From: a virus
Virus record (IMG/VR): IMGVR_UViG_3300028550_004390
Location: 2,734 to 66,733 of that record
Direction: 5' to 3' (one strand)
DNA: 64,000 bases
In this document: positions 21,871 through 51,322 of the stretch, one piece after another
Layout: each line of letters begins with the position of its first letter
How positions within the stretch are numbered: position 1 is the stretch's first letter
Notes under the pieces: model-generated
Database searches by the model: none
The model's input: only the letters and a program-made list of their open reading frames with translations
What the model was told of the DNA's origin: nothing
Position numbers and translations under genes: made by a program

Positions 21871-22676
21871 TTATTATCCTTAAATACTACTTGATCTATA
21901 CTAACATCAGTTCCAAATATGTAATCGGCAACTGGCTTTATACTTTTAAAATTTTCTCTGAAAGGCCTTAGGAAATTGCACGTTATATATCCATCTGAAT
22001 GAAGCTTATTTAGATCTATATTCCACCAAGACCTGTCTATCCAATCAATACTTACGTTTGCATTTCTATCGACCTTTGTGATTTTTCCAGCCCAAATATT
22101 TAATAGAACCCTCATTAGGGATTCATCTGAAAATATGTTAGACGGAATTTCTATAGCTTCTTTATGGTCGAAGGTTTCCGATCCGACAAATGACTTTATT
22201 AGCTTTTCATATGATAATCCATTAGGGTTTACTATAGCTTTAAATACACTTCCCTTTGCTGTCATTGTGCTCATAGGGAACTTGCCTTCATGGGGAGTTC
22301 CTTTATATACCTCAGACCCTACAACTATAACACCGTCTTTATATGTTGAAGTTCTATCTTCAAAGAATTTTTTTTGTAAAGGTATTGTATCCATATCTTC
22401 AATCATGCAAACTTCGTTTTCATATTCTGCTGCTATTATATGTCTACTAATTTTTGCTTGGTTTGCTGTCGGTATACCTGGAATGGTATTGAATATCTTA
22501 ACTTCTGCGTATGTTCTCATTCGCACAACTAATTCATCATCTTCACTTCGATCGCTTATAAAAGCAATACTCAAGGCTTTTTCGGGGAAGTATTTTTTCC
22601 AAGCTTTTGCAACTATCGGTACAAATTGTAAAAACATTGGGTTTTCATCTGTACTTACTATGATTCTATCAAACAT
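21867..22676 (-). CDS. putative GT-A-like glycosyltransferase
   Basis: DMD (DxD) motif and W/F-SDE-type motif; located in sugar cluster. Confidence 0.5.
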   Translation of the reverse strand: MFDRIIVSTDENPMFLQFVPIVAKAWKKYFPEKALSIAFISDRSEDDELVVRMRTYAEVKIFNTIPGIPTANQAKISRHIIAAEYENEVCMIEDMDTIPLQKKFFEDRTSTYKDGVIVVGSEVYKGTPHEGKFPMSTMTAKGSVFKAIVNPNGLSYEKLIKSFVGSETFDHKEAIEIPSNIFSDESLMRVLLNIWAGKITKVDRNANVSIDWIDRSWWNIDLNKLHSDGYITCNFLRPFRENFKSIKPVADYIFGTDVSIDQVVFKDNK

Positions 22677-23238
22677 TTTTTATCTTATCCTTTAGTATTT
22701 CTAATACTGGTTTTTTTATCATATCTTTATCGTTTTGGAAAACGAGGTCTATATTATTGCTATGGAACATATCTAGGTCCATATAGCTTTTGCCACTTGT
22801 TCCTGATATGTAAGATGTTGCATTCATAGATTTGCATATTTCTACTAATCTGGCTGTACCTTTTAGTTCTGTATCCTTATCTGAAACTATCTCTGTTTTT
22901 ATATCCAATATCTTGCAAATTTTTCTTATTAGATTTCCATTCGTTTCGAAAAGACTGTTGGATATGCATTCATCAAATATTTCTAAATTATAATCATAAA
23001 GACTTTTTTTAATCTTGGTCCAATCTCTTTGTGGGTTTACATACCTCTTATCGACTATACTTTCCAAACCTTTATTTGTACCCATGGTAAACCACCTTTC
23101 ATTCATGTTAAATCTATTTTGGAAATTATTCTTTTCAAACTGGCAATGATTTAACAGTACAAACACATCGGCTGACTCTATTTTTTGAAAGAATGGGTAC
23201 CAAGGCATAAAGTTTGGTTGGTGGATTGTTATTTGCAT
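22669..23238 (-). CDS. WbqC-like family protein
   Basis: IHQPNFMPWYPFFQKI..ADVFV...QFEKNNFQNR...YISGTSGKSY. Confidence 0.88.
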   Translation of the reverse strand: MQITIHQPNFMPWYPFFQKIESADVFVLLNHCQFEKNNFQNRFNMNERWFTMGTNKGLESIVDKRYVNPQRDWTKIKKSLYDYNLEIFDECISNSLFETNGNLIRKICKILDIKTEIVSDKDTELKGTARLVEICKSMNATSYISGTSGKSYMDLDMFHSNNIDLVFQNDKDMIKKPVLEILKDKIKNV

Positions 23239-23248
23239 TTGGAAACTT

Positions 23249-23803
23249 TTACTTTAGCCATTGTTTAAATCCTTCAAATGTAAATTCTCTTGCATGTATA
23301 TACCACAAGTTGTGTTTTGGATTATACTCGTTATATTCACAGCATAGCCATCCATCTTCAAATTTTACTAGCTTTATTCCATGTTCACTACATATACTTT
23401 CAGTATCTATATTCCACTTATTGAATGGAGGAACAAATATAGAAGCTTTTGCTAAGTTACAGCTAGTAATGATACTAAGCTCTTGGGTTTCCTTTGTAAG
23501 TAGTCTGTGGTCAACGTGGATGAGACCATGACCTGCTCGGGTGATCCATTCTGGGAATTCTGGTATGCCGCAATCATCGACTTCATAGAATTTTCTATGG
23601 TCACTATGGGCATTGAGAATTTTAGGAAAAATCCTTTCGGAGGTGATTCCCTCTTCCGAAGTCATATCATGTACTAGGGGTGAGATGCAGAAAATAACTT
23701 CAGCGGATGGTATTTTCTTTTTTATTAACTCTGCAAATCTGATTGTCAAGTCCATATCTGCATTTATGCAAATGTCGTCAAATCTAAATGTCCTCTTACT
23801 CAT
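23249..23803 (-). CDS. polysaccharide deacetylase-like protein
   Basis: FRFDD, HGLIH.DH, FVPPFNKW (NodB/CE4-like motifs). Confidence 0.75.
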   Translation of the reverse strand: MSKRTFRFDDICINADMDLTIRFAELIKKKIPSAEVIFCISPLVHDMTSEEGITSERIFPKILNAHSDHRKFYEVDDCGIPEFPEWITRAGHGLIHVDHRLLTKETQELSIITSCNLAKASIFVPPFNKWNIDTESICSEHGIKLVKFEDGWLCCEYNEYNPKHNLWYIHAREFTFEGFKQWLK

Positions 23804-24444
23804 AACATATCTCCATGTTCAGGGTGTAATTTAGCATTATGCTCATCGAATGCTTGGCCTATAAATAGACCTGGCTTCCTTTTTGTTGGGAATGGAATTT
23901 TTTGGAAGTACTCATCGTGAACGCAGCTATTGTTTTTTACCAAAGGAAATACCATTTCCCTTAGAAAGTTTTGATCAACTTGCCAAAAGTTTCCCTTATC
24001 ATAACTGGTTATTAGCTCTTTAAGGTTTGCCAAAATGTTTCCCCTTACTCCCCACATACCACCTAGTATTTCAGTACCGTGCTGTGGATGATCTCTCATG
24101 ATATGGAAGTCTTTTTCACTTTTTAGCCATTCATTAACAGCTGCTGACTCTCTGCTATTCAATCTGCTATCAGTATCCCTAGATATCATTACTTCTACGT
24201 CGGTCTCTGAAGCAGGGTAGAATCTCCAGAACATTGCTGTCCAATCTCCAGGACCCATTTCTACTATTTCTGTATTGTCTTGAGATTTTATGGTATTGAT
24301 AATATCTTCAGGCACACAATCAGCTACATAAAATCTACAGATCCAACCTGGATAATGTTTTTTGGCAAGAGCCGATTGCTTTACTGCACCTATTGTATAT
24401 GTAGGGTTATTTCCCCATAGACTAAAACTAATTATTTTTTTCAT
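23800..24444 (-). CDS. putative glycosyltransferase-like protein
   Basis: IISFSLWG, MFWRF, SRDTDSR, IMRDHPQH, ILGGMWG, DQNFL. Confidence 0.65.
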   Translation of the reverse strand: MKKIISFSLWGNNPTYTIGAVKQSALAKKHYPGWICRFYVADCVPEDIINTIKSQDNTEIVEMGPGDWTAMFWRFYPASETDVEVMISRDTDSRLNSRESAAVNEWLKSEKDFHIMRDHPQHGTEILGGMWGVRGNILANLKELITSYDKGNFWQVDQNFLREMVFPLVKNNSCVHDEYFQKIPFPTKRKPGLFIGQAFDEHNAKLHPEHGDML

Positions 24445-26010
24445 TTAGCCCTTTCCAAATATATGTTTATAATTATTGAATACTAAAGATTCTTCAATAT
24501 GCTTTTCTTTTTGAGTTTCTAAGCTGGTTGACATTCCTTTTGGGTTCATATAGTACATGCCATATATTCCTGGTATTTTTGAGAACACAGATCCATTTTT
24601 AACCATTCTAAGCCACATTTCCCAATCTCCAGCAGATTTATATGAATCGTCAAACATTTCCTTTTCATGTATTTTAGCTCTCCAAACGGGCATACAACCT
24701 GGCAAGCATTTCTCCATATTTCTAATTGAAAATTCTTTGATAGGATAAACTCTTCCTTGGGATGTATTATTATAGTAGCTTTCAAAGTCATTCATTGTTA
24801 GGTATGCTTCACTATAAGCTAAGTCTATGTTTTCATTATCCTCTAGGAACCTTACATGATGTTCAATATGGGTATCTGCTCTTCTATCGTCTAGATTTGC
24901 ATTTGTTATATACTTACCTTTTGACAGTTCGATGCCTTTATTCCAGCAACCATATATTCCAGGATCATCTTCTAGTTTTTTATATATTATGTTGTCGTGT
25001 ATTTTCATTTGTGAAAGAATAGTTTCACATAGTGGTCCTGGTGTGGGATCAACTATAATAAGTTCACACGAACTAAATACTGACTGGGAGGTCATATTTT
25101 CTAAGAAAGCCTTTATATGGTCTTCACCTTTAAACTTTGAAGTAATGATTGAAACTAGAGGTAATGCGTGTTCATATAACTTTGGTTCTTGTATAAAGTT
25201 CTCTATAAAGCTCTGTTTGGATGCTCTAATGAAGTCTAGTAGCTCGATACCTTTTAACTTAGGAAACCATGGTTCTGAAGTGCATCCATTTTTATCGTCC
25301 GTTATAACCTTACATCCTAGCATCCGGGCCTCAACTATAAACTTATTATATGTTTCCAATACCCCAGGTAAAAATAGTACTGTTTCGTATTTTGCCATGG
25401 TTTCCATAAGGTCCTTATATGGCAATGGGCCTACAAGATCATATTCTATACCGTTAGTTTCACAATATTGAATACAAACGTTAGTATTTTTTATCGGATT
25501 AGGCGAATTCAATATCATAGTTTTTGATTTGGTCTTTTCACAAATAGATTTTTCAATGATATCTAGATGCTCATCAGACCATATACTAGTCGATAAATTA
25601 ACAACGTTATTTAAACCTACATTTTTACTAACAACATCGCTGTGTAGCCTAGATTGACAATAAACATATTTTGCATTTGTGTAGAACTTTCGGTTAATTA
25701 TCTGGTTTGGTGGAACCATATAGTCTTTATATTTTGATACATCCCTTTGAGGTATGTATTTATGGTCATGTTCAATTATGCAATAGTTACATTCTTGTAA
25801 CTTAAGCTTAATATTTTCTGACAGTTGTACGAAATTACTTATGAAAATATTCTCTGTTAAGTGTTCATTGGTAACATTTGAACATTTTACTCTACTAACT
25901 TGACAACCAAGCTTTTCTAGTTCTTTAATAATTTCTTCATTAACTAGTTCTGCTCCGCCGAATATTTCATCTAAGAAAAAGTCTGCTATAAATGTTATAC
26001 TTTTACTCAA
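24445..26010 (-). CDS. bifunctional glycosyltransferase (GT-B N-domain + GT2 C-domain)
   Basis: GGAE...ETYNKFIVEARMLGC; PLVSIITS...WNKGI..SKGKYITNANLDD...GDWEMWLR. Confidence 0.85.
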   Translation of the reverse strand: MSKSITFIADFFLDEIFGGAELVNEEIIKELEKLGCQVSRVKCSNVTNEHLTENIFISNFVQLSENIKLKLQECNYCIIEHDHKYIPQRDVSKYKDYMVPPNQIINRKFYTNAKYVYCQSRLHSDVVSKNVGLNNVVNLSTSIWSDEHLDIIEKSICEKTKSKTMILNSPNPIKNTNVCIQYCETNGIEYDLVGPLPYKDLMETMAKYETVLFLPGVLETYNKFIVEARMLGCKVITDDKNGCTSEPWFPKLKGIELLDFIRASKQSFIENFIQEPKLYEHALPLVSIITSKFKGEDHIKAFLENMTSQSVFSSCELIIVDPTPGPLCETILSQMKIHDNIIYKKLEDDPGIYGCWNKGIELSKGKYITNANLDDRRADTHIEHHVRFLEDNENIDLAYSEAYLTMNDFESYYNNTSQGRVYPIKEFSIRNMEKCLPGCMPVWRAKIHEKEMFDDSYKSAGDWEMWLRMVKNGSVFSKIPGIYGMYYMNPKGMSTSLETQKEKHIEESLVFNNYKHIFGKG

Positions 26011-26030
26011 TTGTTTTTTCCTTTAGTATT

Positions 26031-26080
26031 TAATAGACATGTAAATATAAGGTATAACTAGCGAAATAAAAAATTATTCC
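26031..26080 (-). promoter_or_regulatory. class B promoter, near-duplicate of 45652..45700
   Basis: taatagacatgtaaatataag..ataact....aaataaaaaattatt in both places. Confidence 0.65.
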
Positions 26081-26084
26081 CTGG

Positions 26085-26504
26085 TTATTTTCCTAAGTTA
26101 TAATCTAGAAGCATTATCCCTGACATCTTTTTTATATCTAAGGTTCTATAGCTTGTGTTGTATTTACTACCCATTTTAGATTTTAAAATGCCCTCATATA
26201 TTGCACGAGGACTTCCAGGCAGATTTAGCTTTGGGATATTATTTTTAACCCCAGGTTGGGATATAGAAGTAGTACCTACTGTTTTAGCTAGATTTATAAA
26301 TGTTATAGAATTAAACTCATTGAGAGATAAAGCATGTAACTGGCCTTTGTAATTTACATCTAGAACCAGAAGAATATATTCGCCCCCTGATTGGTCCTGG
26401 CTCGTATACCTGCATTTAACAATCATTCCCTCGGTAAGCTTGTCTTTAGATATTATAAATCTAGATTTTACTCTAGTATTATGTTCACTATAAAAGTTCG
26501 CCAA
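26085..26504 (-). CDS. hypothetical protein
   Basis: 139 aa ORF, TTG start. Confidence 0.6.
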   Translation of the reverse strand: MANFYSEHNTRVKSRFIISKDKLTEGMIVKCRYTSQDQSGGEYILLVLDVNYKGQLHALSLNEFNSITFINLAKTVGTTSISQPGVKNNIPKLNLPGSPRAIYEGILKSKMGSKYNTSYRTLDIKKMSGIMLLDYNLGK

Positions 26505-26961
26505 GACTATATCCTTTTATATTCTTAATAGCAGATAGATATGCGTCATAGTACTGAGCATTATCCATATCTATTTTCGATTCATAATTAACATCCTGGG
26601 AGTATTGCTTCTCTTCAGATTGGGTTAACTTAATTATAGGGGCATAGCACCATTTGTACTCGTTTTTATTCCCAGTAGGAAATACAATGCCTTCTGTTGT
26701 TTGAATAGATGATGGGTACCAATACGATTCACCATCGTCGAATCTGAGGTCTTTCATAAGTCTAGGCATTTTAGATTCAAAAGTATTTAAATCAAAGTCT
26801 GGGTTCTTTTTGTAGTTTAATGGAAATTCATTTGTAAAAAAGCCAGAGCTAAGATCCATTCTGGTTTGCATATTTTTATCATCATACTCAGTTAAGACCC
26901 TGTCTTTTCCTGTGATAGGACTTTTAGTCCAGACATCTTTTGTCGCTTTTTTATTATTCAT
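26488..26961 (-). CDS. hypothetical protein
   Basis: 157 aa ORF in operon. Confidence 0.7.
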   Translation of the reverse strand: MNNKKATKDVWTKSPITGKDRVLTEYDDKNMQTRMDLSSGFFTNEFPLNYKKNPDFDLNTFESKMPRLMKDLRFDDGESYWYPSSIQTTEGIVFPTGNKNEYKWCYAPIIKLTQSEEKQYSQDVNYESKIDMDNAQYYDAYLSAIKNIKGYSLGELL

Positions 26962-28219
26962 ATGTTTGAAGTGCCTCTAATTTTGGTACTTTGGGTTCAA
27001 AGCTAGGAACGTTATTTTCTACTTGCTTTGTAAATAGTTTAGTCATTTCATCTAATGTAAAATTATCTTTTATATATTGTTTTTGCTTTCTAGATTTAGC
27101 AAGATGTTTTTTGTAATTAGATTCAACATCCTTTATAACTCCCATAGCATATCCATAGTCAACGTAATACCAACTAGAACCTTCAATAATAACTTTTTCC
27201 CACTGAGCTGACTTGTGAACTGGCTGTAGTTGGCCTTGTAGTAGTAACCCATGTTCAGAAAGGAAATCAAGATGTCCAGACCAATTTGAAGCCAAAATAG
27301 GTTTTCCAGTTATTCCAAATTCTAATAGCGGTCGTCCGAATCCTTCTCCATGAGTAAAACTTACCATAGCCTTAATTTTAGGATGGTGGTATAAGCCATT
27401 CATTTCTTCAGAGGATAAGTCCCCATGTAATAAATACACATTTGGGACTGTACCTGAAGTCTCTACCGAGCTTCTGATCTGACGTATTCTATCTAGCATG
27501 TTTTCTCTATCAGTAACTGAATACCCTGCTGAAGATGTTTTAATTATTAAAGCAGGTTGATTTTTAGATGCTTTATTTTTAAAGGCTTCTAAAAAAGTCC
27601 TAAGTGTTCCTCCGGTGTCTTTTCGATCGTGGCCAAAGTCCCCATTAAGCCAATGGCCAACCATTAAATAGCAATTCTTTTCAGGAATAGTGTCTAATGA
27701 TGAACAAATGGACTCTGGATATTTTTGGAACTTATTAAATACTGACAGGTCTAAGCCTTCAAATAGGACTTCTATTTTTGTATCTAAAACAAGCTCAGAT
27801 GTTACTTGTTGGGTGTTCGGATCCTTTCCTTGGTACTTAGTATTTTCAAATACCTTTTTAGCATGCTCAGATGGTACAATAACCAGGTCCATCCTATTAA
27901 CTCCCTGTAACCATTCTGGAGAAACCATAGTTGTTTCCATTCCGGCAGTTATGCCTATATTATATTTGCCTACTTGTTGGAATTCCGAAGGCACTGTTAC
28001 TTGGATCCATACATCTGGCTTAGCCGTTAATTGCGGAATTACCATTTTAGAAAATTCTTGAGGCATAGCATTTCTAGGACACGATCCCCAGGGCTGATCT
28101 AGGATCCCTATAGAAAACTTATCCATAGCTATTAAGCTACGTATTAGATCTCTAGCATGGTCACCATACCCAGATCTACTAGAAGCTGGGGCACTTATTA
28201 CTAAATTAGGCTTAATCAT
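26954..28219 (-). CDS. glycosyltransferase family 4-like
   Basis: SRSGYGDHARD, HGEGFGRPLLE, NWSGHLDFL; likely start ATG 28219. Confidence 0.88.
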   Translation of the reverse strand: MIKPNLVISAPASSRSGYGDHARDLIRSLIAMDKFSIGILDQPWGSCPRNAMPQEFSKMVIPQLTAKPDVWIQVTVPSEFQQVGKYNIGITAGMETTMVSPEWLQGVNRMDLVIVPSEHAKKVFENTKYQGKDPNTQQVTSELVLDTKIEVLFEGLDLSVFNKFQKYPESICSSLDTIPEKNCYLMVGHWLNGDFGHDRKDTGGTLRTFLEAFKNKASKNQPALIIKTSSAGYSVTDRENMLDRIRQIRSSVETSGTVPNVYLLHGDLSSEEMNGLYHHPKIKAMVSFTHGEGFGRPLLEFGITGKPILASNWSGHLDFLSEHGLLLQGQLQPVHKSAQWEKVIIEGSSWYYVDYGYAMGVIKDVESNYKKHLAKSRKQKQYIKDNFTLDEMTKLFTKQVENNVPSFEPKVPKLEALQTYE

Positions 28220-29616
28220 ACTAAGACTCCTGAAGGTGCTACTGGAGCATGTATTGCTGCATTTATGAGAGTAAAGTTTTTCCGTGGCTCCCATGTTTCT
28301 AAACACGTATTAATTGAATTTGTCATAGCTTCTGCCATTCCTTTAGCTGTAAATTTATTTTTAATTGCCCAGGTTCTTCCTGATAGGCCTTTTTCGGCTC
28401 TAATTTCTTTTCCCATTTCATACCAATATTTTAGTCCTTTTGTTATTTGATCTAGGGAAACCCTTGAATCGTAAATATATGGGGTTGCTGGTGATCCCTG
28501 AAGGGCTACTTGTGGCCATAAAGGATATACCCATTCTCCATGTTCCTGGGCAATTTTACCTGTGCTATTACTAGGTATTTCAGCAGTAAAATCTTCGAGA
28601 CCCATTGGGCGATCATTAATAGTGAACCCCATTTGATCTTGTAATCCTCCTATGACTGATGCTATTGTTGGGGTACCAGCCATTATAGCTTCCATATGAG
28701 TTAATCCAAACCCTTCTGCTGATGATGGGTTGCACATAACGTCTACTATATTATATAGATAATTTAATTGTTGTTGCTCTAACTTGCCATTACTAAATAT
28801 AATGTCGGAATCCTTAGCTAGCTTTTGGGCCACAACCTTTAAATCTGTTCCTGCTTGGTCTACTATATCCGTATGAAGTATTAGGGCTGTTTCGGATCTA
28901 GCTTCTTTTGGAATTGACAATACAAACGAATTAAATGCTGAAATAAGATCAGCAGGATGTTTTCTTAAAATATTTCTAGAGTTGAAAAGAGCAATATAAT
29001 TATATTCTTTATTTCCAAATAGTTTTTTCTTAAATTCTAATAGTTCTGGATCGTCCTGAGGTAGAGGCTTAAATATGGTTTCGTCTATACCATGTTGGAC
29101 ATATGTTAGGTCTTTACCTTCAATTCTAGGTTTTCTAACACAGACATTTTTATTTATATTATATGTTTGCTGGGATATTGCCATTAACATGTCGCACGAT
29201 TCATAAGCATTTTCATTCCAATGCGGATATGGAAGATCATCCCATATATTATAATACATAATAGGAATGTTCTGGCGTAGCTCGTGCTCCATATCATACA
29301 GCCAACCCCAAAATCTTGGGTCTGTGAAGTGTAATATTGCATCAGGTTTTTCCTTAGCAATTACAGCTCTTAGAATATTAGGATCTCCATAACCGCTAAC
29401 AGGATATAGTCGAAGCGATGCATCTTTAACTCCTGTTTCTTGAGCTACATGCCCACTCATATCTAAAAATTTTCCTTGTTCGGGGTGTGATACTGCTCCA
29501 GCCATTTGGACCCAGTCAAAGTCTTTTAAACTGTTTATGACAAACGATTTGGACATCGTGCCGATACCAGATGGGATCCTTAGATCATCTGACAATAGTA
29601 ATATTTTCTTTTTCAT
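28216..29616 (-). CDS. glycosyltransferase family 4-like
   Basis: LLLSDDLR..SGIG, RNILRKH, SSAEGFGLTHMEAIMAGTP..GGLQDQ. Confidence 0.9.
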   Translation of the reverse strand: MKKKILLLSDDLRIPSGIGTMSKSFVINSLKDFDWVQMAGAVSHPEQGKFLDMSGHVAQETGVKDASLRLYPVSGYGDPNILRAVIAKEKPDAILHFTDPRFWGWLYDMEHELRQNIPIMYYNIWDDLPYPHWNENAYESCDMLMAISQQTYNINKNVCVRKPRIEGKDLTYVQHGIDETIFKPLPQDDPELLEFKKKLFGNKEYNYIALFNSRNILRKHPADLISAFNSFVLSIPKEARSETALILHTDIVDQAGTDLKVVAQKLAKDSDIIFSNGKLEQQQLNYLYNIVDVMCNPSSAEGFGLTHMEAIMAGTPTIASVIGGLQDQMGFTINDRPMGLEDFTAEIPSNSTGKIAQEHGEWVYPLWPQVALQGSPATPYIYDSRVSLDQITKGLKYWYEMGKEIRAEKGLSGRTWAIKNKFTAKGMAEAMTNSINTCLETWEPRKNFTLINAAIHAPVAPSGVLV

Positions 29617-29839: not shown

Positions 29840-30268
29840 TCATGACACAATAACTATTTTTTTATTTAATTTATGGGCTTCTCTAATGGTATGTAAACTA
29901 CCTGATGATTTTTCGCCTTCAGTTATAAAGGCAATGATGTAGTCCGAAGACTTTGCTAACAACTTATTCCTATGAAAGAAATTTTTTGGACTGTAAGTCT
30001 TACCATAGAATGCCTCATTCATTGCTGAATATAGATTCTTATTCGTATGGGAGGGGTTAAACTCCCGATAATAACATTCGAACTCCAAAGCATATTTTTT
30101 GGCCAAAGCATCTGCCCCATGAGGACATCCTCCTGAAAGTATTATTAGTTGGTCACCGAACTTTTGCTTTAGCGAATAGATCATCTCCTTCACCTTCTTT
30201 TTGTTCTGCCATGTTCGGCTTCCAACTATGCCTACCTTTACTGGGCTTGTCGAGTTTCTTTCGGACAT
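29840..30268 (-). CDS. SLOG-superfamily (YspA/DUF2493-like) protein
   Basis: VGIVGSR, SGGCPHGADALA, RNKLLA, SSGSLHTI. Confidence 0.8.
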   Translation of the reverse strand: MSERNSTSPVKVGIVGSRTWQNKKKVKEMIYSLKQKFGDQLIILSGGCPHGADALAKKYALEFECYYREFNPSHTNKNLYSAMNEAFYGKTYSPKNFFHRNKLLAKSSDYIIAFITEGEKSSGSLHTIREAHKLNKKIVIVS

Positions 30269-33666: not shown

Positions 33667-36129
33667 TTAAGCTGGTTGGGATACCTTTTTGATATATCCC
33701 TTGTATGCATTAAGCATAGTTTTAACTTCTGGTATGAGTGCGAACTCTTCTAGTTGCTCATAGATCTGCTTTTTGAAGTAGACATCATAATCAATACTAA
33801 AGATGTCTGGTCTGTCATCTATAAACTTTAGGTCTGATTCATTCAAGCATATTGCAGTTTGACGGTCACCTTTCTTTAGATCTGCCTCGCAATTAGACTT
33901 GATGTAGAATAAGAATGGATTATCCTTATTCGTGATCTCAGTACCTAATTTGGTGTTTGCCCACTTAGATGCTTTTACGTGTTGAGGCATAGTCTTTATA
34001 TACTCTGCAAATGGTTTACCAAAAGCTTTGGCTATTCCTAGATCAGCATATGGTATTGTTTCAATCTCTGCCCTAATCTTTAATAGCCAACTTAAGTCTA
34101 ATTCATTCCGAACCGCTTTTTCAGCCATTTCATTAAGTTTAGACTTTAGGAATTCAGGGGTGTCTTTTCGGATTATATTTAACCCGCGAATGACTTTTTT
34201 ATTGTTTTCCCGAATGATGCCGTAGTATCGCTTTTTAGCTGAACTGAAGTAGATGTATTCTAAATCATACTCGAACTTAAGATCCATATGCTGATAGTTC
34301 ATATCGATACCGGGATTGTAGTGCTTAACGAAGTTGTCTTCTAGATCCTTATTGAATCCTATAAGCTTCTGTTCCATAGCTTCCGGAGTTTCACCTGCGG
34401 ACTTAACAAATATTGAATCTGTATCTCCATAAAGAGTTTTGTGGCCACGATCCTTAAAGTTGACTATGGCATACTTTAGAGCTTGTCTAGCAAAGAATGT
34501 AATAGCATCTGCACATTCATATGAGCATAGTCTGAAATAGTTAAAGCCCATTGCACCGTATGCCGAATTCATAATAAGCTTAAATGCCCATTGTCTTTTG
34601 TGCATAGCATCAACCTGACTATCATCATACTCACCTGCTTTTAGCTTCCGGTTAATCTCCACTCTTTGGTGAAATAGACCTTTTAGAGCTTGTGGTAATA
34701 TACCTTGTTGGTGTGAGTGTGCGTAGAATAGGTAGCGACCACCGATCAAGTCAGTTTGTTTACCAGTATCGACATAGTCAATATTCTCGGCTTTTAACTG
34801 AGCTATAATATCTTCTATATCCATTCCAGCTTCAATGCATGCTTGTTCTGAAGCTATGAATGTTTCAGGGCTAATATTGAAAGCCATTATAGTTGTTGGA
34901 TATAGAGAAGTGTAGTCCATTACAGTAACATCTTCGGTCCTACCAGGTTCGGTAGGGTCTATTACAATAGCACCGGTGAATGGCTTTCGAGGAATTGTTC
35001 TTCGTGTCGGGAATATTAACTTGTTGTGGAATTCCTTGATGATGTAGTTGTCTACGATCATTGACTTAAAGAATACCAGAGAAAGTGATTCTAGATTAGC
35101 AATCTGTTGGATGGCTGTGTATAGATCGAACATCTGGATCTTATCATTGATCTCTTTTAGAATTTCAACGTCACGAATGGCGTAGCGAATAAACCCATCA
35201 TAGTCTTCTAGCCAATCACGCCAAGTCACATCAGTTAACTTATCTAGATCAGGGTCGCCTAAGATCTCCTTAGCAGCAGTAGCTAGCTTCCAGTTAGGTA
35301 GATTGTACCCCATGTCCTGTAGACCCGTCATCATATCTACGTGGTCTAATCCACGAATAGCTGTTCTCCAGAATTCACCACGTTTACGCATATAGATGTC
35401 ATTAATAGGCGATAGCATTTCTGCAGGTAAACCTAAGATCTTACAACGATTAATGATGTATGGCATATCATAGCCATCAGAATACCAACCTGAAAGAATA
35501 TCTACTTTGCTAACCCTAACAAGGTTAAGGAATGCCATAATCATTTCCTCTTCGGTCTTTGTGTAGATGTAGCTGACATTGCCCTTGTCTTCGAGCTTAG
35601 GCTCTTCTAAGTTAGCAGTGTGTTTAGGATGCCACGACATAACAAAGTATTGGTCTTTTTCAGTTGAATAGGTTACCAATGAAGTAATAGGCATTAAAGC
35701 CTTTTCTGGCTTATTCATAGACGAATCATTAGGATCATACCATGTCTCAATGTCATAGTACATGATGTGGCGCTTAGTAGACCATTCCTGCTTATTGTCT
35801 AGTACATATTTGAATTCAGGCTTTACGTCTGCTTGAAATACCTTTCCTGGTTGGCTTTTGGATAACTGGTTCTTTTCTTTGATTGAGCTGTAGTAAACCC
35901 GTTGAACCATTTCACCGTGCAAAGTCTTATAGATCTTTGTATCATTACAATCAAATTGCTTCTTGTCATCAAGATCCGCAATATCCTCATACTTGTAGTA
36001 AAAGTAATCCCGATACTTATCCACGTGTTCTTTATAATTCCCTTTTGAATCATAACCGAACTTGTGAATGTTCCACATACCCCTATCGAATTTAGCGGCT
36101 ATTCTTGAAAGTTTGAAATCCATGTGCAT
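33667..36129 (-). CDS. DNA polymerase family B with 3'-5' exonuclease
   Basis: DIET (ExoI), YDMPY, DYTSLYP, KLIMNSAYG, YGDTDS, KKRYYG. Confidence 0.96.
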   Translation of the reverse strand: MHMDFKLSRIAAKFDRGMWNIHKFGYDSKGNYKEHVDKYRDYFYYKYEDIADLDDKKQFDCNDTKIYKTLHGEMVQRVYYSSIKEKNQLSKSQPGKVFQADVKPEFKYVLDNKQEWSTKRHIMYYDIETWYDPNDSSMNKPEKALMPITSLVTYSTEKDQYFVMSWHPKHTANLEEPKLEDKGNVSYIYTKTEEEMIMAFLNLVRVSKVDILSGWYSDGYDMPYIINRCKILGLPAEMLSPINDIYMRKRGEFWRTAIRGLDHVDMMTGLQDMGYNLPNWKLATAAKEILGDPDLDKLTDVTWRDWLEDYDGFIRYAIRDVEILKEINDKIQMFDLYTAIQQIANLESLSLVFFKSMIVDNYIIKEFHNKLIFPTRRTIPRKPFTGAIVIDPTEPGRTEDVTVMDYTSLYPTTIMAFNISPETFIASEQACIEAGMDIEDIIAQLKAENIDYVDTGKQTDLIGGRYLFYAHSHQQGILPQALKGLFHQRVEINRKLKAGEYDDSQVDAMHKRQWAFKLIMNSAYGAMGFNYFRLCSYECADAITFFARQALKYAIVNFKDRGHKTLYGDTDSIFVKSAGETPEAMEQKLIGFNKDLEDNFVKHYNPGIDMNYQHMDLKFEYDLEYIYFSSAKKRYYGIIRENNKKVIRGLNIIRKDTPEFLKSKLNEMAEKAVRNELDLSWLLKIRAEIETIPYADLGIAKAFGKPFAEYIKTMPQHVKASKWANTKLGTEITNKDNPFLFYIKSNCEADLKKGDRQTAICLNESDLKFIDDRPDIFSIDYDVYFKKQIYEQLEEFALIPEVKTMLNAYKGYIKKVSQPA

Positions 36130-36151: not shown

Positions 36152-36206
36152 GCTAATATACGACTTATTTGGCTATTACTACGATAAATAGCGTTAATTT
36201 TTAAGA
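36152..36206 (-). promoter_or_regulatory. 55-bp class A promoter cassette, copy 4 (upstream of PolB)
   Basis: gctaatatacgactt...actacgat...cgttaa. Confidence 0.7.
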
Positions 36207-36644
36207 TTATTTTTCACCCGTACTGCCAAAACCACCTTCACCTCTTGCTGACTCTTTTTCATATAACTGAGCTTCTGGGACAATATTAACATTGTGTGGA
36301 CCTAATGGTAATAATACAAATTGAACAATCTTATCACCAGGATTAATGACCTGTTCGAATTCCCCAACGTTTGTCAAATTTATATGCACTTCACCTTGAT
36401 AGCCATTATCAACTACGCAAGCTCCTACATGCAAAGATTTTTTGACAGCTATTCCTGATTTATTAAATGCAACTAAAACAAAGCCTTCGGGGACATTTAC
36501 CTTGACTCCAGAAGCTATTAAGCAAGATTCTCCAGGAGCTATCCTTACCATAGGGTTATCTTCTGGCACGAAGAAGTCTATTCCAGCGTCGGTATTGTTT
36601 GCTCTTGTAGGAGCCTTTACATTTCTAATTTTAGATATTTTCAT
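36207..36644 (-). CDS. dut: trimeric dUTPase
   Basis: AGIDF, KSG, VVDNGYQGE, GDKIVQ, RGEGGFGSTG. Confidence 0.93.
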   Translation of the reverse strand: MKISKIRNVKAPTRANNTDAGIDFFVPEDNPMVRIAPGESCLIASGVKVNVPEGFVLVAFNKSGIAVKKSLHVGACVVDNGYQGEVHINLTNVGEFEQVINPGDKIVQFVLLPLGPHNVNIVPEAQLYEKESARGEGGFGSTGEK

Positions 36645-37387
36645 TATTTATTCTTTTGTCTTAAGACTCCAAGTTCATTCTTGAAGACGTGTAGGGAAAC
36701 TATATGCATATTAAAATAGCCTGGTTTAACATTTTCCCAACCGGGCTCTTTTTTAAGTTGCTCTAACATCCAAAATAGCTTTCCACAAGCTAAATAGATA
36801 TCATCTCTTAAGTGTCTTAGGTAGTCACAAGATCTCATATAGTAAGTTAGATGCATAACATCGCCTCTTCTGATAAAGTGGTATCCTATTGTACATGGGA
36901 CTCTTTCATTATGGGTTGCTCCAGTATCTTCTGGAAACCACATAGGCAAAAATGCTTGTCTGGTGAATGGCTCTTTACGTAACATATCTACTACGTCACC
37001 CATATTGCCATAATCATATCTTATGCCTTTTAGCTTTGGAGTCCATAGCCTTTCTGGATACGTATGACTAAATTTAGTATCAGCTTTGAATTGGGTATTA
37101 CCACTTTGTGCAAATGGCCACCATTCATTACTTGGGGGTGGGTTTAGAGGTTCGCCACCGACTCTTTCATTCAAATGGTCTTTAGCCCATGGGAGGTTTG
37201 GTCGAACCTCATCAATCACTTGTACCATATTGTCAGGTATGACGAATTTGATGGTGTGGTTTAGAAGTTCGACCATTGGTTGTTCAACATTAATAGATTG
37301 CCATTTGCCAGAAAATACCTCGACACCGTTTTTGTGGAGCTTTTCTTTTGCAAATCTAATGGCATCTTTTGGTTTTGTGAACATCAT
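36644..37387 (-). CDS. thymidylate-synthase-family enzyme, probably dCMP-modifying (hydroxymethylase-like)
   Basis: TRQA, VPCT (catalytic Cys), MRSCD...LRDDIY with Asp at the E. coli ThyA Asn177 position, SLHVF. Confidence 0.8.
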   Translation of the reverse strand: MMFTKPKDAIRFAKEKLHKNGVEVFSGKWQSINVEQPMVELLNHTIKFVIPDNMVQVIDEVRPNLPWAKDHLNERVGGEPLNPPPSNEWWPFAQSGNTQFKADTKFSHTYPERLWTPKLKGIRYDYGNMGDVVDMLRKEPFTRQAFLPMWFPEDTGATHNERVPCTIGYHFIRRGDVMHLTYYMRSCDYLRHLRDDIYLACGKLFWMLEQLKKEPGWENVKPGYFNMHIVSLHVFKNELGVLRQKNK

Positions 37388-38745
37388 TTTTCAGTGTGGT
37401 AATCTACGAACAGATCCAATACTTTTTTACGGTATTGCATTTGATCTTTTTTAATACTAGGGTTTTTTAGAGGTGCTTTGGTTCTATCCAATATCTCTTT
37501 TGGGATATCATCTTTGAAAGCTTCCTTTAATATAGATTTGTGAGTTCGATCCTTTAAATCTAAAGATCTAGCAAACCTGATAACGTCATGGCCTAAAAAT
37601 GGGGATCTCAATTCGATGGTGTGTGCCATAGACATACGGTCAAGTCTAGGTAAGTGGTAGTATGTTAGTTCGTCGAAGATGTCTGAACCTTGAGAATCGT
37701 ACTCATCTATTCTGCGATAGCCTCCGAATAACTCATCAGCACCATCTCCAGATATAACTATTCTATGTCCAGTTTTAGCAACTGCTTCGAATAGGTGGTA
37801 TTGAGGAATCACCGAACCTAAGTCAATAGGAGTCTCATTCCATTTACAATATATTTCAGACAGCTTAGATTCATCACTAAGGTCATAAGTAAGTCTATTA
37901 ACTTTAATTCCCCAGTGGTCTTCACAAAGCTTTACATATTCATCTTCGCCATTGGAAATGGTATAATAAGTTACGTCTGCACCAAGATCCTGTAATATAG
38001 AAGTTATAATAGTTGAATCAAGCCCGCCAGATAATAATACTGAGATAGGGTAGTTCTTTGATAATAGCCTGCGCTTTACTGACTCAACCATGATTTCTTT
38101 TAGGGTCAAGTCAGGTGGAGAACCAAAGGTTACATTCTCTGATATCCTCATTGCTCGGGGTTGACCGAATCTATAGTTATACCAATACTTGGGATCCAAC
38201 CTTTTTATCCCATTCCATGGAGTTCTATTGTCATGGTTATATCCAAACTTATGAATAGCTCCAATATATGAATCGTCTATGGTATCATATGGTAGGATTA
38301 AGGGCTCAATCTCCGAACATACTTCACCATGGGTATTTATATACAATTGCTTCTTTCCTAATGGATCATTCATCGTAGTTATCATTTTAGTTCTAGCATC
38401 ATAAAGAACTATAGACCAAAACCCATCCCATTGGGATATTCCTCTTTCATACTCTCGGATTTTATCTAGGTCTATAGATCCTATATTCTTGAAGAAATCA
38501 ATGAGATATTCTGTGTCCGAGTCATACATCTCGGTATCATAATTGAATATCTCACCATTAAATAGTAAATACAAATCTGGTGCATACTCATATGGCATTG
38601 CCCATTTATCGTTGTCTACAGTTTGAATTGGCAACCTATGGTGTGATAGTCTTATATGATCTACCATAATAGTTTTGTGTTCTGTTCCGCGATGACTTAT
38701 GAGGTGAGTCCTATCTCTACCTCCTGAAATTGATATTCCGCACAT
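37384..38745 (-). CDS. asparagine-synthetase-like glutamine amidotransferase
   Basis: MCGI, HRG, HHRL, FNGEIFN, LLSGGLDS, SGDGADELFGGY, DRMSMAHTIELRSPFL. Confidence 0.9.
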   Translation of the reverse strand: MCGISISGGRDRTHLISHRGTEHKTIMVDHIRLSHHRLPIQTVDNDKWAMPYEYAPDLYLLFNGEIFNYDTEMYDSDTEYLIDFFKNIGSIDLDKIREYERGISQWDGFWSIVLYDARTKMITTMNDPLGKKQLYINTHGEVCSEIEPLILPYDTIDDSYIGAIHKFGYNHDNRTPWNGIKRLDPKYWYNYRFGQPRAMRISENVTFGSPPDLTLKEIMVESVKRRLLSKNYPISVLLSGGLDSTIITSILQDLGADVTYYTISNGEDEYVKLCEDHWGIKVNRLTYDLSDESKLSEIYCKWNETPIDLGSVIPQYHLFEAVAKTGHRIVISGDGADELFGGYRRIDEYDSQGSDIFDELTYYHLPRLDRMSMAHTIELRSPFLGHDVIRFARSLDLKDRTHKSILKEAFKDDIPKEILDRTKAPLKNPSIKKDQMQYRKKVLDLFVDYHTEK

Positions 38746-38746
38746 T

Positions 38747-39286
38747 TTAATTATTTCCTTTTAAAAGTTCCCGAAATTCAAGGGATGAAAACATTGTGAA
38801 CTCGTTTGCGAATCTAGTTATTTTTAAATTTGGAAGTGCTTCATGAAGTTCAGACAATAGCTCTTCATATAATAAAACTTCTTTATTTTTAGATGAGTCA
38901 TCCCAAACGTCTTTTGCACCACGTTCACGAGGATTGGTCCCGTGAATATATATTATTTCAGTCTCATCAAATAATCCTTCATTAGCAAAGGTCCAAAGCT
39001 GTTTAACAGCTTCATCCATAGTTACACGATTTTCCATTACTCCCCAAACTAAAACCGTGAGGATACCCCGATCGATGTATAGTTTCTTAGTAATGTGCTT
39101 ATCCCGATTTAAGTGGTGTAGCATTATTTCTTTACTAATAGCAAATTGGTGTGTACCAGGATCATTATTACTTAACTTAAGTTTCCCATACCAAAAAGGA
39201 AATGGAAACTTATAAGTCTTAATGTGTGATTGCTGCAGTAAGTACGTTTTGCCAGTGTTTCTGGCACCTTCAATTAATTTTAACAT
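38747..39286 (-). CDS. P-loop dNMP kinase (thymidylate kinase-like)
   Basis: IEGARNTGKT Walker A; IDRG motif. Confidence 0.75.
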   Translation of the reverse strand: MLKLIEGARNTGKTYLLQQSHIKTYKFPFPFWYGKLKLSNNDPGTHQFAISKEIMLHHLNRDKHITKKLYIDRGILTVLVWGVMENRVTMDEAVKQLWTFANEGLFDETEIIYIHGTNPRERGAKDVWDDSSKNKEVLLYEELLSELHEALPNLKITRFANEFTMFSSLEFRELLKGNN

Positions 39287-39309
39287 CTATAACTTTTATT
39301 TATTGTATA

Positions 39310-39345
39310 CTACAAATATACGAAACTATTGGCGATATAAAAAAT
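39310..39345 (-). promoter_or_regulatory. class B promoter of the kinase-amidotransferase-TS-dut operon
   Basis: Minus-strand TTTTTTAT...TCGTATATTTG, matching the Bacteroidota -7 consensus TAnnTTTG. Confidence 0.65.
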
Positions 39346-39381
39346 ATATCACAGGGTATTTCACAATAGCCCGTAATATAT
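39339..39381 (-). terminator. putative intrinsic terminator after nrdJ
   Basis: Imperfect hairpin ATATATTACGGGCTATT-GTGA-AATACCCTGTGATATAT followed by a T-run. Confidence 0.5.
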
Positions 39382-39404
39382 TCTCGTTATCCAGTCGTCA
39401 CGTC

Positions 39405-41273
39405 TCATAAAGCTTCTACTGTGCAGCTTCCACCACTACAAGCTAATTCTCCAGATAGGTCTGTATTATCTTCCATTTCAATTACACGGGTAAGATCGAT
39501 AGAATTTAAGGACTCTAGCATTGACTCATACTGTGCCTTTGTTATATCTTCAAATGGTGCTTGGACGTATGTTCCTCCGTCATGGGGTAATACTGATAAG
39601 CCATTATAAGATTCTCTATTTTCCCACATCCACTCTCCAACTGGTTCCCAATCTTTTTCTTTAAGAGAAACAGTTGCAGATACATTATGAGTATTAGATC
39701 CATTTCTATGTCCAGGTTTAACCCATTCCGTAGCTACTCTTTTGATTCTTTCTAATAGGTCGAGAGGCTTTTCTGTACGAAGGATTGCTCCTCGTGGAGC
39801 TTTCTGAGGTATGCTGATAACTGCAGTATCATGAGTTCTAAAATAGTCATCTTCAACTAATTCTGGATGGTACTCCATCAGATATCCATAGATAGCTTCA
39901 TTCTTACCAACTCGAAGCCTTCTGATATAATATGTATTGTGCCATGCATGAATTCCGGATGATGTTCCCAATACTAATGATGTTGTTCCTGCAGGTTTTA
40001 CCGTAGTGATTCTTGCTGCTGGGTTAATGCCTAATATTTTAGCCATTCTAGTATTTTCTCTTTTTGCTACGCTTGACGCTTTTTTGAGATCATACTTTAA
40101 TACCTCACCAGAGCCAATACCAGTCATTGAAACTCCAACCAAAGCATCTTTTTCTGTGGTCTCTTTCCAGACTTCTCTAAGGTAGTGAAAGTCCGTATAT
40201 GAAGCTTGGATAGTTCCAATAAATGAAGCGACTTTAACTCTTTCGTTAAAATCTTCTTGAGATTCTATATTAGATACATTTACTTCGCATAGGTTACAGA
40301 ACTGATAAGGCCGAAGAGCAATTTCGCAGCAAGGATTAGTTCCCCAGTCTTTATCATTTGATAAGTAAATTCCTGGCTCTCCAGCTCCGGATAGCTCTAC
40401 ACGTTTCCATAAGTCCATAAAAAATTCTTTTGTTATTTTATGACGCATTAGGACTGCTGAATTGTTTGCACGACCTCTTTGGGCATTTAGTTCCCACCAA
40501 TTTCCAGATTTACAAGAAATCATTTTTTCATCTGTAGCTGTAAATAGACTAATAAGAGCTGCTCTGCGAATACCCCCAGCTAGTACTGCGTCTGCAATAT
40601 AGCAAACAATATCATGTACTTCTAGTGTTGATAACCTGTCACCTTCTAACTTAGACTCAAGAATACCTTCTATTTTTAAAATGCACTCTTTTAGGGGCTG
40701 AGGTCCTGGTGCTTTACCACCTGAGGTTACTAGCATTGCTCCTTTGGGCCTGATGTCAGAATAGTCAAATTTAATTCTGGATCCTCTTTTGTTGCCAAGG
40801 AATGACTTCATAAGCACCTTAATAGCATCTGCCCATCCTTCTATAGAATCACCTATTACAAACCTTCGTTCTCGTTTTGGAAATGGCTTTAGAACGTGAG
40901 GTAATTGATCTACGTGATGATTTTGCACACTATAGCCAACTCCACAGCCGCTAAGCAATAAAAACATTGTTTCACTAAAAGAGTCAATGTGATCTATAGG
41001 TAGATAGCTGCAATTATAAAGTCTGTTAGGAGAAATTTCTATCGGACGACCTCCGAATTGTAAGCTTCGCATAGATGGCAATACTTTTTTAGAATATACA
41101 AATTTGTAGCATTCTTCTATTTCATTAGCCAGGTTAGGGAATTTTTTTATATGCATAGCTTTGTTGCGATCTACTAGCTCTTCCCATGTTTCCCTTCTAT
41201 TTTCATCGGGGGAGTATTTTGCATATTTCATATGCACTGTCAAATCAGACAGGATTTTATTCGATATATTCAT
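39405..41273 (-). CDS. nrdJ: class II (adenosylcobalamin-dependent) ribonucleotide reductase
   Basis: LPSMRSLQFGG, NC, TNPCCEI, TVKPAGTTS, C-terminal CSGGSC; no small subunit nearby. Confidence 0.9.
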   Translation of the reverse strand: MNISNKILSDLTVHMKYAKYSPDENRRETWEELVDRNKAMHIKKFPNLANEIEECYKFVYSKKVLPSMRSLQFGGRPIEISPNRLYNCSYLPIDHIDSFSETMFLLLSGCGVGYSVQNHHVDQLPHVLKPFPKRERRFVIGDSIEGWADAIKVLMKSFLGNKRGSRIKFDYSDIRPKGAMLVTSGGKAPGPQPLKECILKIEGILESKLEGDRLSTLEVHDIVCYIADAVLAGGIRRAALISLFTATDEKMISCKSGNWWELNAQRGRANNSAVLMRHKITKEFFMDLWKRVELSGAGEPGIYLSNDKDWGTNPCCEIALRPYQFCNLCEVNVSNIESQEDFNERVKVASFIGTIQASYTDFHYLREVWKETTEKDALVGVSMTGIGSGEVLKYDLKKASSVAKRENTRMAKILGINPAARITTVKPAGTTSLVLGTSSGIHAWHNTYYIRRLRVGKNEAIYGYLMEYHPELVEDDYFRTHDTAVISIPQKAPRGAILRTEKPLDLLERIKRVATEWVKPGHRNGSNTHNVSATVSLKEKDWEPVGEWMWENRESYNGLSVLPHDGGTYVQAPFEDITKAQYESMLESLNSIDLTRVIEMEDNTDLSGELACSGGSCTVEAL

Positions 41274-50323: not shown

Positions 50324-51322
50324 TCACAAAGCCAAAGGTCTCATGGCATCATAATTCTTGCCATACTTAGATTTGGTTGGTAGACCCATCAGGGCTTTTA
50401 GTTCGAACAATAGGGATTTGCCATCCTCGGGGGCAACGTCAAACAAAAATGAATCATAGGTATATAAGACCAATTTGGTTTTACGATTCTTTAATAGTGC
50501 TTGAATTTTTTCCATAACTTCGATATTCTTTTCTGTCTCATATGCTTGGATCAAATAATTGAATAGCTTCTGAGGAGACATCTCCTCGTAATTCTTCTTA
50601 TAAAACCTTCTGCCAAATATAGGGGTCTCGATGTATCCCCTCTCATTATAACTATCCCATAATTCAAAAATATAGGTCTTAGTCTTCTTAAAGTATTCTA
50701 TGTTCTCAAACTCCTTCGGTATACCTCCATAGAGCACCCTAAACGAGATCCTTTTCGACTCTTCATATTCCTCATTGGTCAGGTTATTAGTGTCAAAGTA
50801 CATTTTTCCGAGATGGGTGTGAACTGAAGATTCTGAGAATTCATAATCAATAAGTCCAGCTATCAGCCTTAGATGGTAGGCATCATAATCAAACTCAACT
50901 AAAACGCCGTCCTCATGTCTACTGATGAACCTTTCTCTAGACTTGTCGTCTTTGTTCAATGCAGCATAGTTTACACCCTTGTTTGTATTCGAAGGTCTTC
51001 CTGTTAGTGTATATAGGTTGTATCTGGAATGTTCTGTGCCTGTGGTGGTAAAGATGCCGCTATCTTCAATTGATTCAAATAACGGAGTGATCTTATCCAT
51101 GTACGTTTCTTCACATACTGCCTTTGGCATACCTTCTAGCACTCTGGTGTTTATGGCTACTTGCTCTCTGTGCTTATTCTTTGGGATAATCATATGGACA
51201 TCCTTTCTGTTCCAATACTTATGGCCAAAAAATTTGAATATTGGTAGTTGAATGGTTTCTAGATCTGTGGCTTTCCCTGTGTTCAGGTAACTGCGAACTA
51301 GAATCTGCTTCAAAATATCCAT
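50324..51322 (-). CDS. truncated DNA polymerase A-family protein (polymerase domain only)
   Basis: TGRPS, DYDAYHLRLI (motif A), KRISFRVLYGG (B), ETPIFGRR, NYLIQ, YTYDSFLFD (C). Confidence 0.85.
   Translation of the reverse strand: MDILKQILVRSYLNTGKATDLETIQLPIFKFFGHKYWNRKDVHMIIPKNKHREQVAINTRVLEGMPKAVCEETYMDKITPLFESIEDSGIFTTTGTEHSRYNLYTLTGRPSNTNKGVNYAALNKDDKSRERFISRHEDGVLVEFDYDAYHLRLIAGLIDYEFSESSVHTHLGKMYFDTNNLTNEEYEESKRISFRVLYGGIPKEFENIEYFKKTKTYIFELWDSYNERGYIETPIFGRRFYKKNYEEMSPQKLFNYLIQAYETEKNIEVMEKIQALLKNRKTKLVLYTYDSFLFDVAPEDGKSLLFELKALMGLPTKSKYGKNYDAMRPLAL

Follow-up and report, generated by a model that had tools for sequence, protein, structure and literature searches.

A phage gene unit joining a cytosine-type thymidylate synthase homolog to an AsnB-family amidotransferase, a candidate pathway for modified dCMP

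The window analyzed here is a 64-kb stretch of viral DNA, bases 2734-66733 of the 66.7-kb IMG/VR record IMGVR_UViG_3300028550_004390 (CheckV completeness 39%), and its minus strand carries every gene. At 36207-39286 it encodes a unit of four co-oriented genes, for a P-loop kinase, an AsnB-family glutamine-dependent amidotransferase, a thymidylate synthase (TS) homolog, and a dUTPase, and we give a probability of roughly 0.48 to the reading that this unit specifies a T4-style modified-dCMP pathway with an optional ATP- and glutamine-dependent amidation step. Successive genes abut or overlap (a 1-nt gap between kinase and amidotransferase, a 4-nt overlap between amidotransferase and TS homolog, and a 1-nt overlap between TS homolog and dUTPase); a family B DNA polymerase (PolB) gene follows 77 nt downstream and a class II ribonucleotide reductase (RNR) gene lies 118 nt upstream. 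The open reading frame (ORF) coordinates and junctions agree with an earlier sequence-only reading of this DNA, which had reported four abutting or overlapping genes next to PolB.

The TS homolog, kinase, and dUTPase

The TS homolog scores 26.7 bits against PF00303 (cut-off 24.3), across residues 127-242 only, and falls far under the NCBIfam thymidylate synthase equivalogs (30.6 vs 174.55 and 17.1 vs 327). In a HMMER alignment to the Lactobacillus casei TS, RSCDYLRHLRDDI pairs with RSADIFLGVPFDI, which places Asp196 opposite L. casei Asn229, the equivalent of E. coli Asn177. The best Protein Data Bank (PDB) entry found with the single sequence also has Asp at that residue, and we take it to be an N229D mutant. 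Asp196 is invariant in 15 of 15 TS-family members, down to 25% identity, and the further invariants in the same 15 members are R-x-P-C around the catalytic Cys165, RS-x-D, and S-x-H. Arg162 is invariant at the E. coli Leu143 position, where the acidic residue of hydroxymethylases is not found, and the invariant Asp188 of RS-x-D shows that D169 is kept, rather than exchanged as in the D169N form of 5-hydroxy-dCMP synthases. Mutagenesis cited in passages of PMC8670742 and PMC13326640 indicates that the change of N177 to Asp turns TS toward dCMP; the former also reports Asp177 to be enriched in modified contigs, and the latter describes L143 to Asp/Glu as correlating with hydroxymethyl products and D169N as diagnostic of 5-hydroxy-dCMP synthase. 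Because N177D is combined here with a kept D169 and an Arg at L143, the product of the TS homolog cannot be read from known signatures.

A profile of the TS family searched against the PDB matched the CMP 5-hydroxymethylase MilA at 1.1e-17, thymidylate synthases at ~1e-10, and the T4 dCMP hydroxymethylase at 4.4e-10. The AlphaFold2 model of the TS homolog has a mean confidence (pLDDT) of 78.6, with residues 80-124 poorly predicted; Foldseek placed MilA first (TM score 0.71) and then the phage dCMP hydroxylase AfhB (9iqu, 9iqc), with 396 PDB matches at E<=0.001, those listed being TS-fold enzymes. The invariant Asp, the profile matches, and the model-based fold matches together support a cytosine-type enzyme. 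The sequence-only reading had identified both the Asn177-to-Asp replacement and a dCMP-type TS from the letters of one gene, and the alignment confirms the first, while the family-wide conservation and the top-ranked cytosine-nucleotide enzymes lend weight to the second.

The TS family is rare: 116 of the 50,697 phage records have it, those of actinophages and of siphophages infecting Proteobacteria predominating, and the 40 records listed show 37-45% identity. The Arg/Asp signature and R-x-P-C are kept in three siphophage TS homologs that we aligned. Ahead of the Arg/Asp TS homolog, Brevundimonas and Serratia siphophages and a phage from spring water encode a paralog-like protein of ~270 aa (L189 4038-4877, L190 4186-4995, and L191 2909-3679) that keeps the RS and D motifs, is without the catalytic Cys, and is named pyrimidine hmase in one record. 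The spring-water phage record also has ThyX.

The 179-aa kinase had no family match in Pfam (PF02223 and PF01712 included), PHROG, or NCBIfam; against PDB sequences, nothing usable was obtained with the single sequence and nothing below E 0.5 with the family profile. An alignment of 19 relatives shows the Walker A motif G7-x4-G12-K13 (a GxxxxGKT P-loop) and D72-R73 to be invariant. The AlphaFold2 model (pLDDT 91.7) has deoxyadenosine kinases, thymidylate kinases (TMPK), and YorR as its top Foldseek matches, with TM scores of 0.53-0.64 and E values of 2.6e-4 to 1e-3 for the deoxyadenosine and thymidylate kinases, and its protein atlas neighbors are TMPK-, deoxynucleoside kinase (dNK)-, and NadR-like. 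The earlier designation as a dNMP kinase is, on the evidence of the predicted structure, fair at fold level, and a TMPK/dNK-like fold indicates a nucleotide rather than a DNA substrate. The dUTPase scores 64.5 bits against PF00692 (cut-off 22; 1e-17), 104.8 against TIGR00576 (cut-off 102.55), and 5e-42 against phrog_135, so that its identification from sequence stands.

The amidotransferase clade and its linkage to the TS family

The assignment of the second gene to AsnB-like amidotransferases, also made in the sequence-only reading, is borne out by Pfam matches to Asn_synthase (1.2e-41) and GATase_7 and by the invariance of M1-C2-G3-I4 and of the PP-loop S239-G-G-L-D-S244 in 15 of 15 family members, with glutamine-site motifs kept. 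Among solved structures the nearest are human asparagine synthetase (4.6e-17) and that of E. coli (5.2e-15), and the protein falls under the curated asparagine synthase cut-offs (TIGR01536 198.7 vs 267.1; PRK09431 132 vs 499). We considered SGDGADE, with Asp in place of the Glu of human and E. coli AsnB, as a sign of changed substrate and discarded it, since Asp is also present in 57 of 65 generic bacterial AsnB-like motif matches.

The amidotransferase family is tight, with members of ~465 aa and a mean column identity of 64%; 4377 proteins fell at E<=1e-5 among 7999 candidates scored, and the clade accounts for at least 474 IMG/VR loci. No match above 26% identity was found among the 50,697 phage records. 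Prokaryotes were scanned at one genome per species (185,579 species) with two peptide patterns invariant in the family, and the scan returned five metagenome-assembled genome (MAG) contigs at 52, 51, 51, 45, and 33% identity, all else being at or below 29%. Two of the five are binned as Saprospirales and have a phage-like gene order. By this census, the amidotransferase clade is virus-restricted.

The comparative map comprises 85 loci: the window itself, the 80 top-ranked IMG/VR loci, and four others. Phages closely related to the window share its gene order (RNR, kinase, amidotransferase, TS, dUTPase, PolB). In five sister-clade loci the amidotransferase is missing from the series: two small ORFs follow RNR, and the kinase, TS, dUTPase, and PolB genes come next, with a 4-nt overlap of kinase and TS. 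Since the sister clade keeps kinase, TS, and dUTPase without it, the amidotransferase is accessory and dispensable, and the conserved core, judged from gene order, is kinase, TS homolog, and dUTPase. In 53 of the 85 loci a P-loop kinase gene immediately precedes the amidotransferase, which often adjoins a dUTPase gene (31 of 85). Phages of ~36 kb have the order DUF6378, MazG-like pyrophosphohydrolase, TS, amidotransferase, 133-aa protein, dUTPase, so that two MazG-type pyrophosphohydrolases flank the TS/amidotransferase pair on one side and a dUTPase on the other; no kinase was found in four records of the small-phage types with TS and amidotransferase, two of them complete. The four genes, which the sequence-only reading had treated as a set, are consequently not an obligate one, the sister clade doing without the amidotransferase and the ~36-kb phages without the kinase.

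The largest group of loci (architecture A, 48 of 85) comes from T4-like jumbo phages with a Gp23 capsid and comprises an 820-aa protein, kinase, amidotransferase, and conserved unknowns, with no TS homolog within 7 kb of the amidotransferase in any of the 48. Of the 37 loci outside architecture A, 35 have a TS homolog at most 7 kb from the amidotransferase, upstream of it in some and downstream in others, with about six gene orders represented; the remaining two loci are a 4-kb contig and a contig that ends 207 nt from the amidotransferase. When five architecture A records were searched whole, a TS homolog was found elsewhere in four (E 1e-96 to 1e-100), including three of three complete ones. 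Two of the unknowns beside the jumbo amidotransferase (226 aa and 242 aa) were examined as diverged TS proteins and rejected, with hhalign probabilities below 1% for both. Much of the 85-locus set consists of near-identical phages out of a single sample series, which brings the independent cases down to about six or seven. Viewed from the TS side the association is weak: just 4 of 80 TS loci have an amidotransferase no more than 7 kb away, and none of the 116 TS-bearing phage records is among the amidotransferase matches. The sequence-only reading had suggested a synteny search for the four genes; between TS and amidotransferase the link holds in one direction, the amidotransferase being coupled to TS across unrelated phages, and only weakly in the other. 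As far as these genomes go, the amidotransferase is found almost only where the TS family occurs, and the TS family does not need the amidotransferase. A DNA-level search of phage records gave only a 125-nt match, inside mycobacteriophage TS genes.

All three complete jumbo phages encode a canonical ThyA (273-325 bits) alongside the TS homolog, which is therefore not their thymidylate synthase. The ThyA matches lie in frames of 407-414 aa (G001 180428-181618, G002 173375-174574, and G003 147210-148265); in two records the match is in two pieces, and the gene may be fused or carry an insert. In 8 of the 48 architecture A loci (L106, L118, L121, L123, L127, L128, L135, and L136), the kinase-amidotransferase pair is flanked on the opposite strand by a 498-aa protein with a RimK-like ATP-grasp ligase and a Zn-protease-like domain.

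Genomic setting and comparison with known systems

The window codes for tail sheath, tail tube, and baseplate proteins as well as a UvsX-like recombinase, a DnaB-like helicase, a single-stranded DNA-binding protein, and GroEL/GroES (Pfam/PHROG annotation), and this gene content marks a contractile-tailed phage; the phage is uncultured and of marine type. The host is probably a member of the Bacteroidota, because an 824-aa protein (15339-17813, minus strand) carries at its C terminus a type IX secretion sorting domain, which is characteristic of that phylum. The principal features are listed in Table 1.

Table 1. Features of the window discussed in the text (positions counted from the first base of the window)
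Feature	Position	Strand	Size or evidence
Glutamine-synthetase-like gene	3646-4743	-	Gln-synt_N + Gln-synt_C
GDP-sugar/glycosyltransferase block	19162-29616	-	GDP-mannose 4,6-dehydratase 2.7e-120, second epimerase/reductase, WbqC-like
PolB, presumed incorporating enzyme	33667-36129	-	DNA_pol_B 8.5e-46 + exonuclease domain (Pfam)
TCGTATATT copy before PolB, marking the end of the unit	36155-36163	-	Promoter-like motif
Trimeric-type dUTPase	36207-36644	-	145 aa; Pfam, PHROG, NCBIfam
Cytosine-type TS homolog	36644-37387	-	247 aa; Cys165, Asp196, Arg162; profile + fold
AsnB-family glutamine-dependent amidotransferase	37384-38745	-	453 aa; virus-restricted clade, accessory; Pfam, motifs
P-loop kinase, TMPK/dNK-like, putative modified-dNMP kinase	38747-39286	-	179 aa; motifs + fold
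TCGTATATT copy upstream of the four-gene unit	39315-39323	-	Promoter-like motif
Class II (B12-dependent-type) RNR	39405-41273	-	phrog_367 1.6e-134; Pfam RNR barrel + RNR-II insertion domain
Lower coordinates of all TCGTATATT copies	3615, 10305, 31184, 36155, 39315, 46643, 51329	-	Exact matches

The window contains the motif TCGTATATT seven times as an exact match; each copy is on the minus (coding) strand and between genes, and the next start codon follows after ~15-30 nt. The flanks of the copies are alike, often with TATCGTAGT ~20 nt upstream and AGTAGTATACAA downstream, and the repetition suggests a phage-specific promoter class. Copies precede the kinase and PolB and none lies between, and the four genes therefore look like one transcription unit. 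The sequence-only reading had placed a single promoter at ~39310; one promoter for the four genes is made plausible by the motif copy upstream of the kinase, but a sigma-70 scan gave no match on the minus strand within 39287-39404, so that a sigma-70 promoter there was rejected in favor of the phage-specific motif.

The GDP-sugar block contains four or five glycosyltransferases (GT1/GT2/GT4-conflict domains, the GT4-conflict domain in one of them). The glycosyltransferase at 28216-29616 has counterparts of 58-60% identity in the sister clade that is without the amidotransferase; the block could serve to glycosylate a hydroxylated base or to remodel surface glycans. Between the glycosyltransferases and a PD-(D/E)XK nuclease lies a gene for a 142-aa DprA/SLOG-family protein (29840-30268, minus strand). 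A 332-aa ORF at 50324-51322 (minus strand) matches part of the family A DNA polymerase model PF00476 (positions 78-224), alongside the full PolB of this genome. A copy of 55% identity to the glutamine-synthetase-like gene is present in one jumbo phage, of 348 kb, whose genome carries the amidotransferase as well; the gene was not found in the closest relative of the window or in nine other records, four further amidotransferase-bearing large ones among them. Its presence in one of five records searched, and then in none of five, led us to reject glutamine synthetase as a consistent partner of the amidotransferase.

In the pre-replicative cytosine replacement of T4, the dCMP hydroxymethylase gp42, the dNMP kinase gp1, and the dCTPase/dUTPase gp56 act before glucosyltransferases. 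The window resembles T4 in having a TS homolog that is about as long as gp42 and carries Asp at the Asn177 position (residues 37-244 align to gp42 at 4.4e-10), in its dedicated kinase and dUTP-clearing enzyme, in the glycosyltransferases elsewhere in the window, and in the dCMP deaminase of relatives. It differs in that the TS family has an invariant Arg at the Leu143 position where T4-type hydroxymethylases have Asp or Glu, in that the kinase is TMPK/dNK-like and is without a family match, unlike gp1, and in the AsnB-family amidotransferase, which has no T4 counterpart. MilA, the best solved relative by profile and by fold, shares the Asp at the specificity position, but it has Asp at -3 from the Cys where this TS family has Arg, and it is a bacterial enzyme of 325 aa acting on a ribonucleotide. 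The amidotransferase has the N-terminal nucleophile Cys, the glutamine-site motifs, the SGGLDS PP-loop, and the SG-D/E-G-x-DE motif of AsnB, whereas it is ~100 aa shorter, virus-restricted, and linked to TS.

A parallel to the pairing of TS homolog and kinase is offered by the 5-hydroxy-dCMP synthase clusters of RB69, DLP3, and RL38JI, in which passages of Lee et al. 2026 (PMC13326640) place an N177D TS homolog beside a TMPK-like cognate kinase, with sugar-nucleotide and glycosyltransferase genes in the same genome, as in the window. Unlike the synthases described there (PMC13326640), the TS homolog keeps Asp188 (no D169N) and has Arg, not Glu, at L143, and the window has an amidotransferase where those clusters have none. 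The thymidine hypermodification systems (5-HMUDK P-loop kinase, amino-acid:DNA transferases, and associated GATases and amidoligases) share with the window a P-loop kinase that adjoins a glutamine amidotransferase, the RimK-like ligase beside the amidotransferase in eight architecture A loci being a further resemblance, and untested amidotransferases/GATases are noted near thymidine hypermodification genes in parts of PMC8989533 and PMC13229309. In contrast to those systems, the kinase here is TMPK/dNK-like and the TS homolog is of the cytosine type rather than a hydroxymethylase of dUMP. No aGPT-Pplase/AADT, DNA-glycosylase-fold partner, or TET/JBP is named in the Pfam/PHROG annotation of the window, which covers about half of the ORFs in the case of Pfam and included no directed search for them.

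The proposed pathway and its alternatives

From the gene order, domains, catalytic motifs, folds, and comparative linkage, we infer the substrates, the products, and the modification of virion DNA itself as follows. The four genes would be expressed as one transcription unit. The dUTPase would clear dUTP from DNA synthesis and give dUMP, and the catalytic Cys of the TS homolog would attack C6 of dCMP so that a one-carbon substituent is installed at C5. The TMPK-like kinase would phosphorylate a non-canonical dNMP that host kinases refuse, and the adjacent PolB would incorporate the modified nucleotide. Where the amidotransferase is present, glutamine would be hydrolyzed at its N-terminal Cys, and its PP-loop domain would adenylate an oxygen function of a pathway intermediate or appended group and then exchange it for ammonia, yielding a nitrogen-bearing modified pyrimidine. 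Carboxylates are the groups that AsnB-type enzymes amidate, and the reaction of a folate-dependent TS homolog yields none. The specific product named in the sequence-only reading, an amino- or carboxamido-modified dC, is for that reason best regarded as a guess; an activated hydroxymethyl or later-appended group is a possible target of amidation, one for which there is no precedent.

Several observations weigh against the proposed pathway. The need of AsnB-type enzymes for a carboxylate is matched by no obvious carboxylate-making enzyme here, and an Arg at the very position tied to hydroxymethylation by L143 to Asp/Glu leaves the TS product unreadable. The sister-clade records, 77-80% complete, showed no amidotransferase elsewhere, and it occurs in only 8 of 25 TS-bearing records (3 of the 6 that are >=90% complete). 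A changed nucleotide product might demand altered active sites, yet those of TS, kinase, and PolB are not obviously different in clades that have the amidotransferase and clades that lack it. The count of TS/amidotransferase events that can be taken as independent is the six or seven given above and not 35, the clade is without any cultured member, and the glutamine-synthetase-like gene of the window fits nitrogen metabolism.

That last gene leads to the most serious alternative, which we regard as unlikely but far from negligible: the amidotransferase would be an auxiliary metabolic gene (AMG) making asparagine or another non-DNA metabolite amide for phage protein synthesis in a nitrogen-limited host, and would stand beside a modified-dC or dTTP module by chance of region. 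Phage asparagine synthases and glutamine synthetases are counted as AMGs in the literature, including passages of PMC12619734, and the full AsnB architecture with its glutaminase Cys and PP-loop, the asparagine synthetases as nearest solved relatives, and the gain and loss of the gene between close relatives would all suit such a role. The glutamine-synthetase-like gene and its copy in an amidotransferase-bearing jumbo phage suit it too, but the absence of that gene from the closest relative and the four further large records does not, and neither does the failure of the amidotransferase to reach the curated asparagine synthase cut-offs. Its only cellular members above 29% identity are MAG contigs of phage-like order, which is odd for a recent host capture, and an independent AMG would not be expected to be co-located in 35 of 37 loci, in several gene orders, with a TS family found in so small a share of phage records. 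More improbable still is that the core is an ordinary dTTP route without DNA modification, in which dUTPase supplies dUMP, the TS homolog converts it to dTMP, and the kinase forms dTDP. These activities do make up the textbook thymidylate pathway, and searches of the record of the window and of four relatives, two being 77-80% complete, turned up neither a canonical ThyA nor a ThyX, so that the DNA examined of this lineage has no other TS-family gene. The jumbo phages, however, hold the TS homolog in addition to a canonical ThyA; the homolog scores far below the thymidylate synthase equivalogs, and cytosine-nucleotide enzymes head both its profile and its fold matches. The invariant Asp at the Asn177 position likewise points away from dUMP, given the effect of that change reported in passages of PMC8670742 and PMC13326640.

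A further alternative accepts a nucleotide substrate and gives the amidotransferase a GMP synthetase-like amination of a ring carbonyl, from dUMP to dCMP or from dTMP to 5-methyl-dCMP, that would raise the supply of substrate or product. The AsnB-related PP-loop enzymes GMP synthetase, TilS, and ThiI activate nucleobase carbonyls, the amidotransferase adjoins dUTPase in the 31 loci counted above, and such a role would require no change in TS, kinase, or PolB between clades, as is seen. Against it, we know of no AsnB-family enzyme that acts on a ring carbonyl, and in the ~36-kb phages the MazG-type pyrophosphohydrolases beside the pair could already supply dCMP. Genes for dCMP deaminase were present in 10 of 15 records searched and in 7 of the 8 that are >=90% complete, all eight of which carry the amidotransferase; a deaminase together with a dUMP-to-dCMP aminase in one genome would run a futile cycle in most of them. 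A supply role is weakened accordingly, and we consider it very improbable.

Which restriction, CRISPR, and other nuclease defenses are effective depends on the hypermodifications of phage DNA, which are also a source of new enzymes for nucleic-acid chemistry. In the characterized pyrimidine pathways that we know of, a TS homolog is followed by kinases, glycosyltransferases, or amino-acid transferases acting on DNA, and none includes an AsnB-family amidotransferase; a literature search, with supplements outside its scope, found no paper linking an AsnB-family enzyme to phage DNA modification. It is a tentative and, on balance, doubtful extension of the proposed pathway that the virus-only AsnB-like clade is a new nucleotide-modifying enzyme, acting on a C5-modified or ring-carbonyl pyrimidine deoxynucleotide from the Arg143/Asp177 TS homolog to give a nitrogen-bearing cytosine new to DNA, in hundreds of uncultured aquatic phages of 36 to >400 kb. 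What the comparison does provide is a large, well-conserved, uncultured clade tied by gene neighborhood to a cytosine-type TS family. If that link is not real, the clade would be a widespread nitrogen-metabolism AMG of aquatic phages, a more modest result; if it is real, there are two enzyme activities still to be discovered, and perhaps a new DNA base as well.

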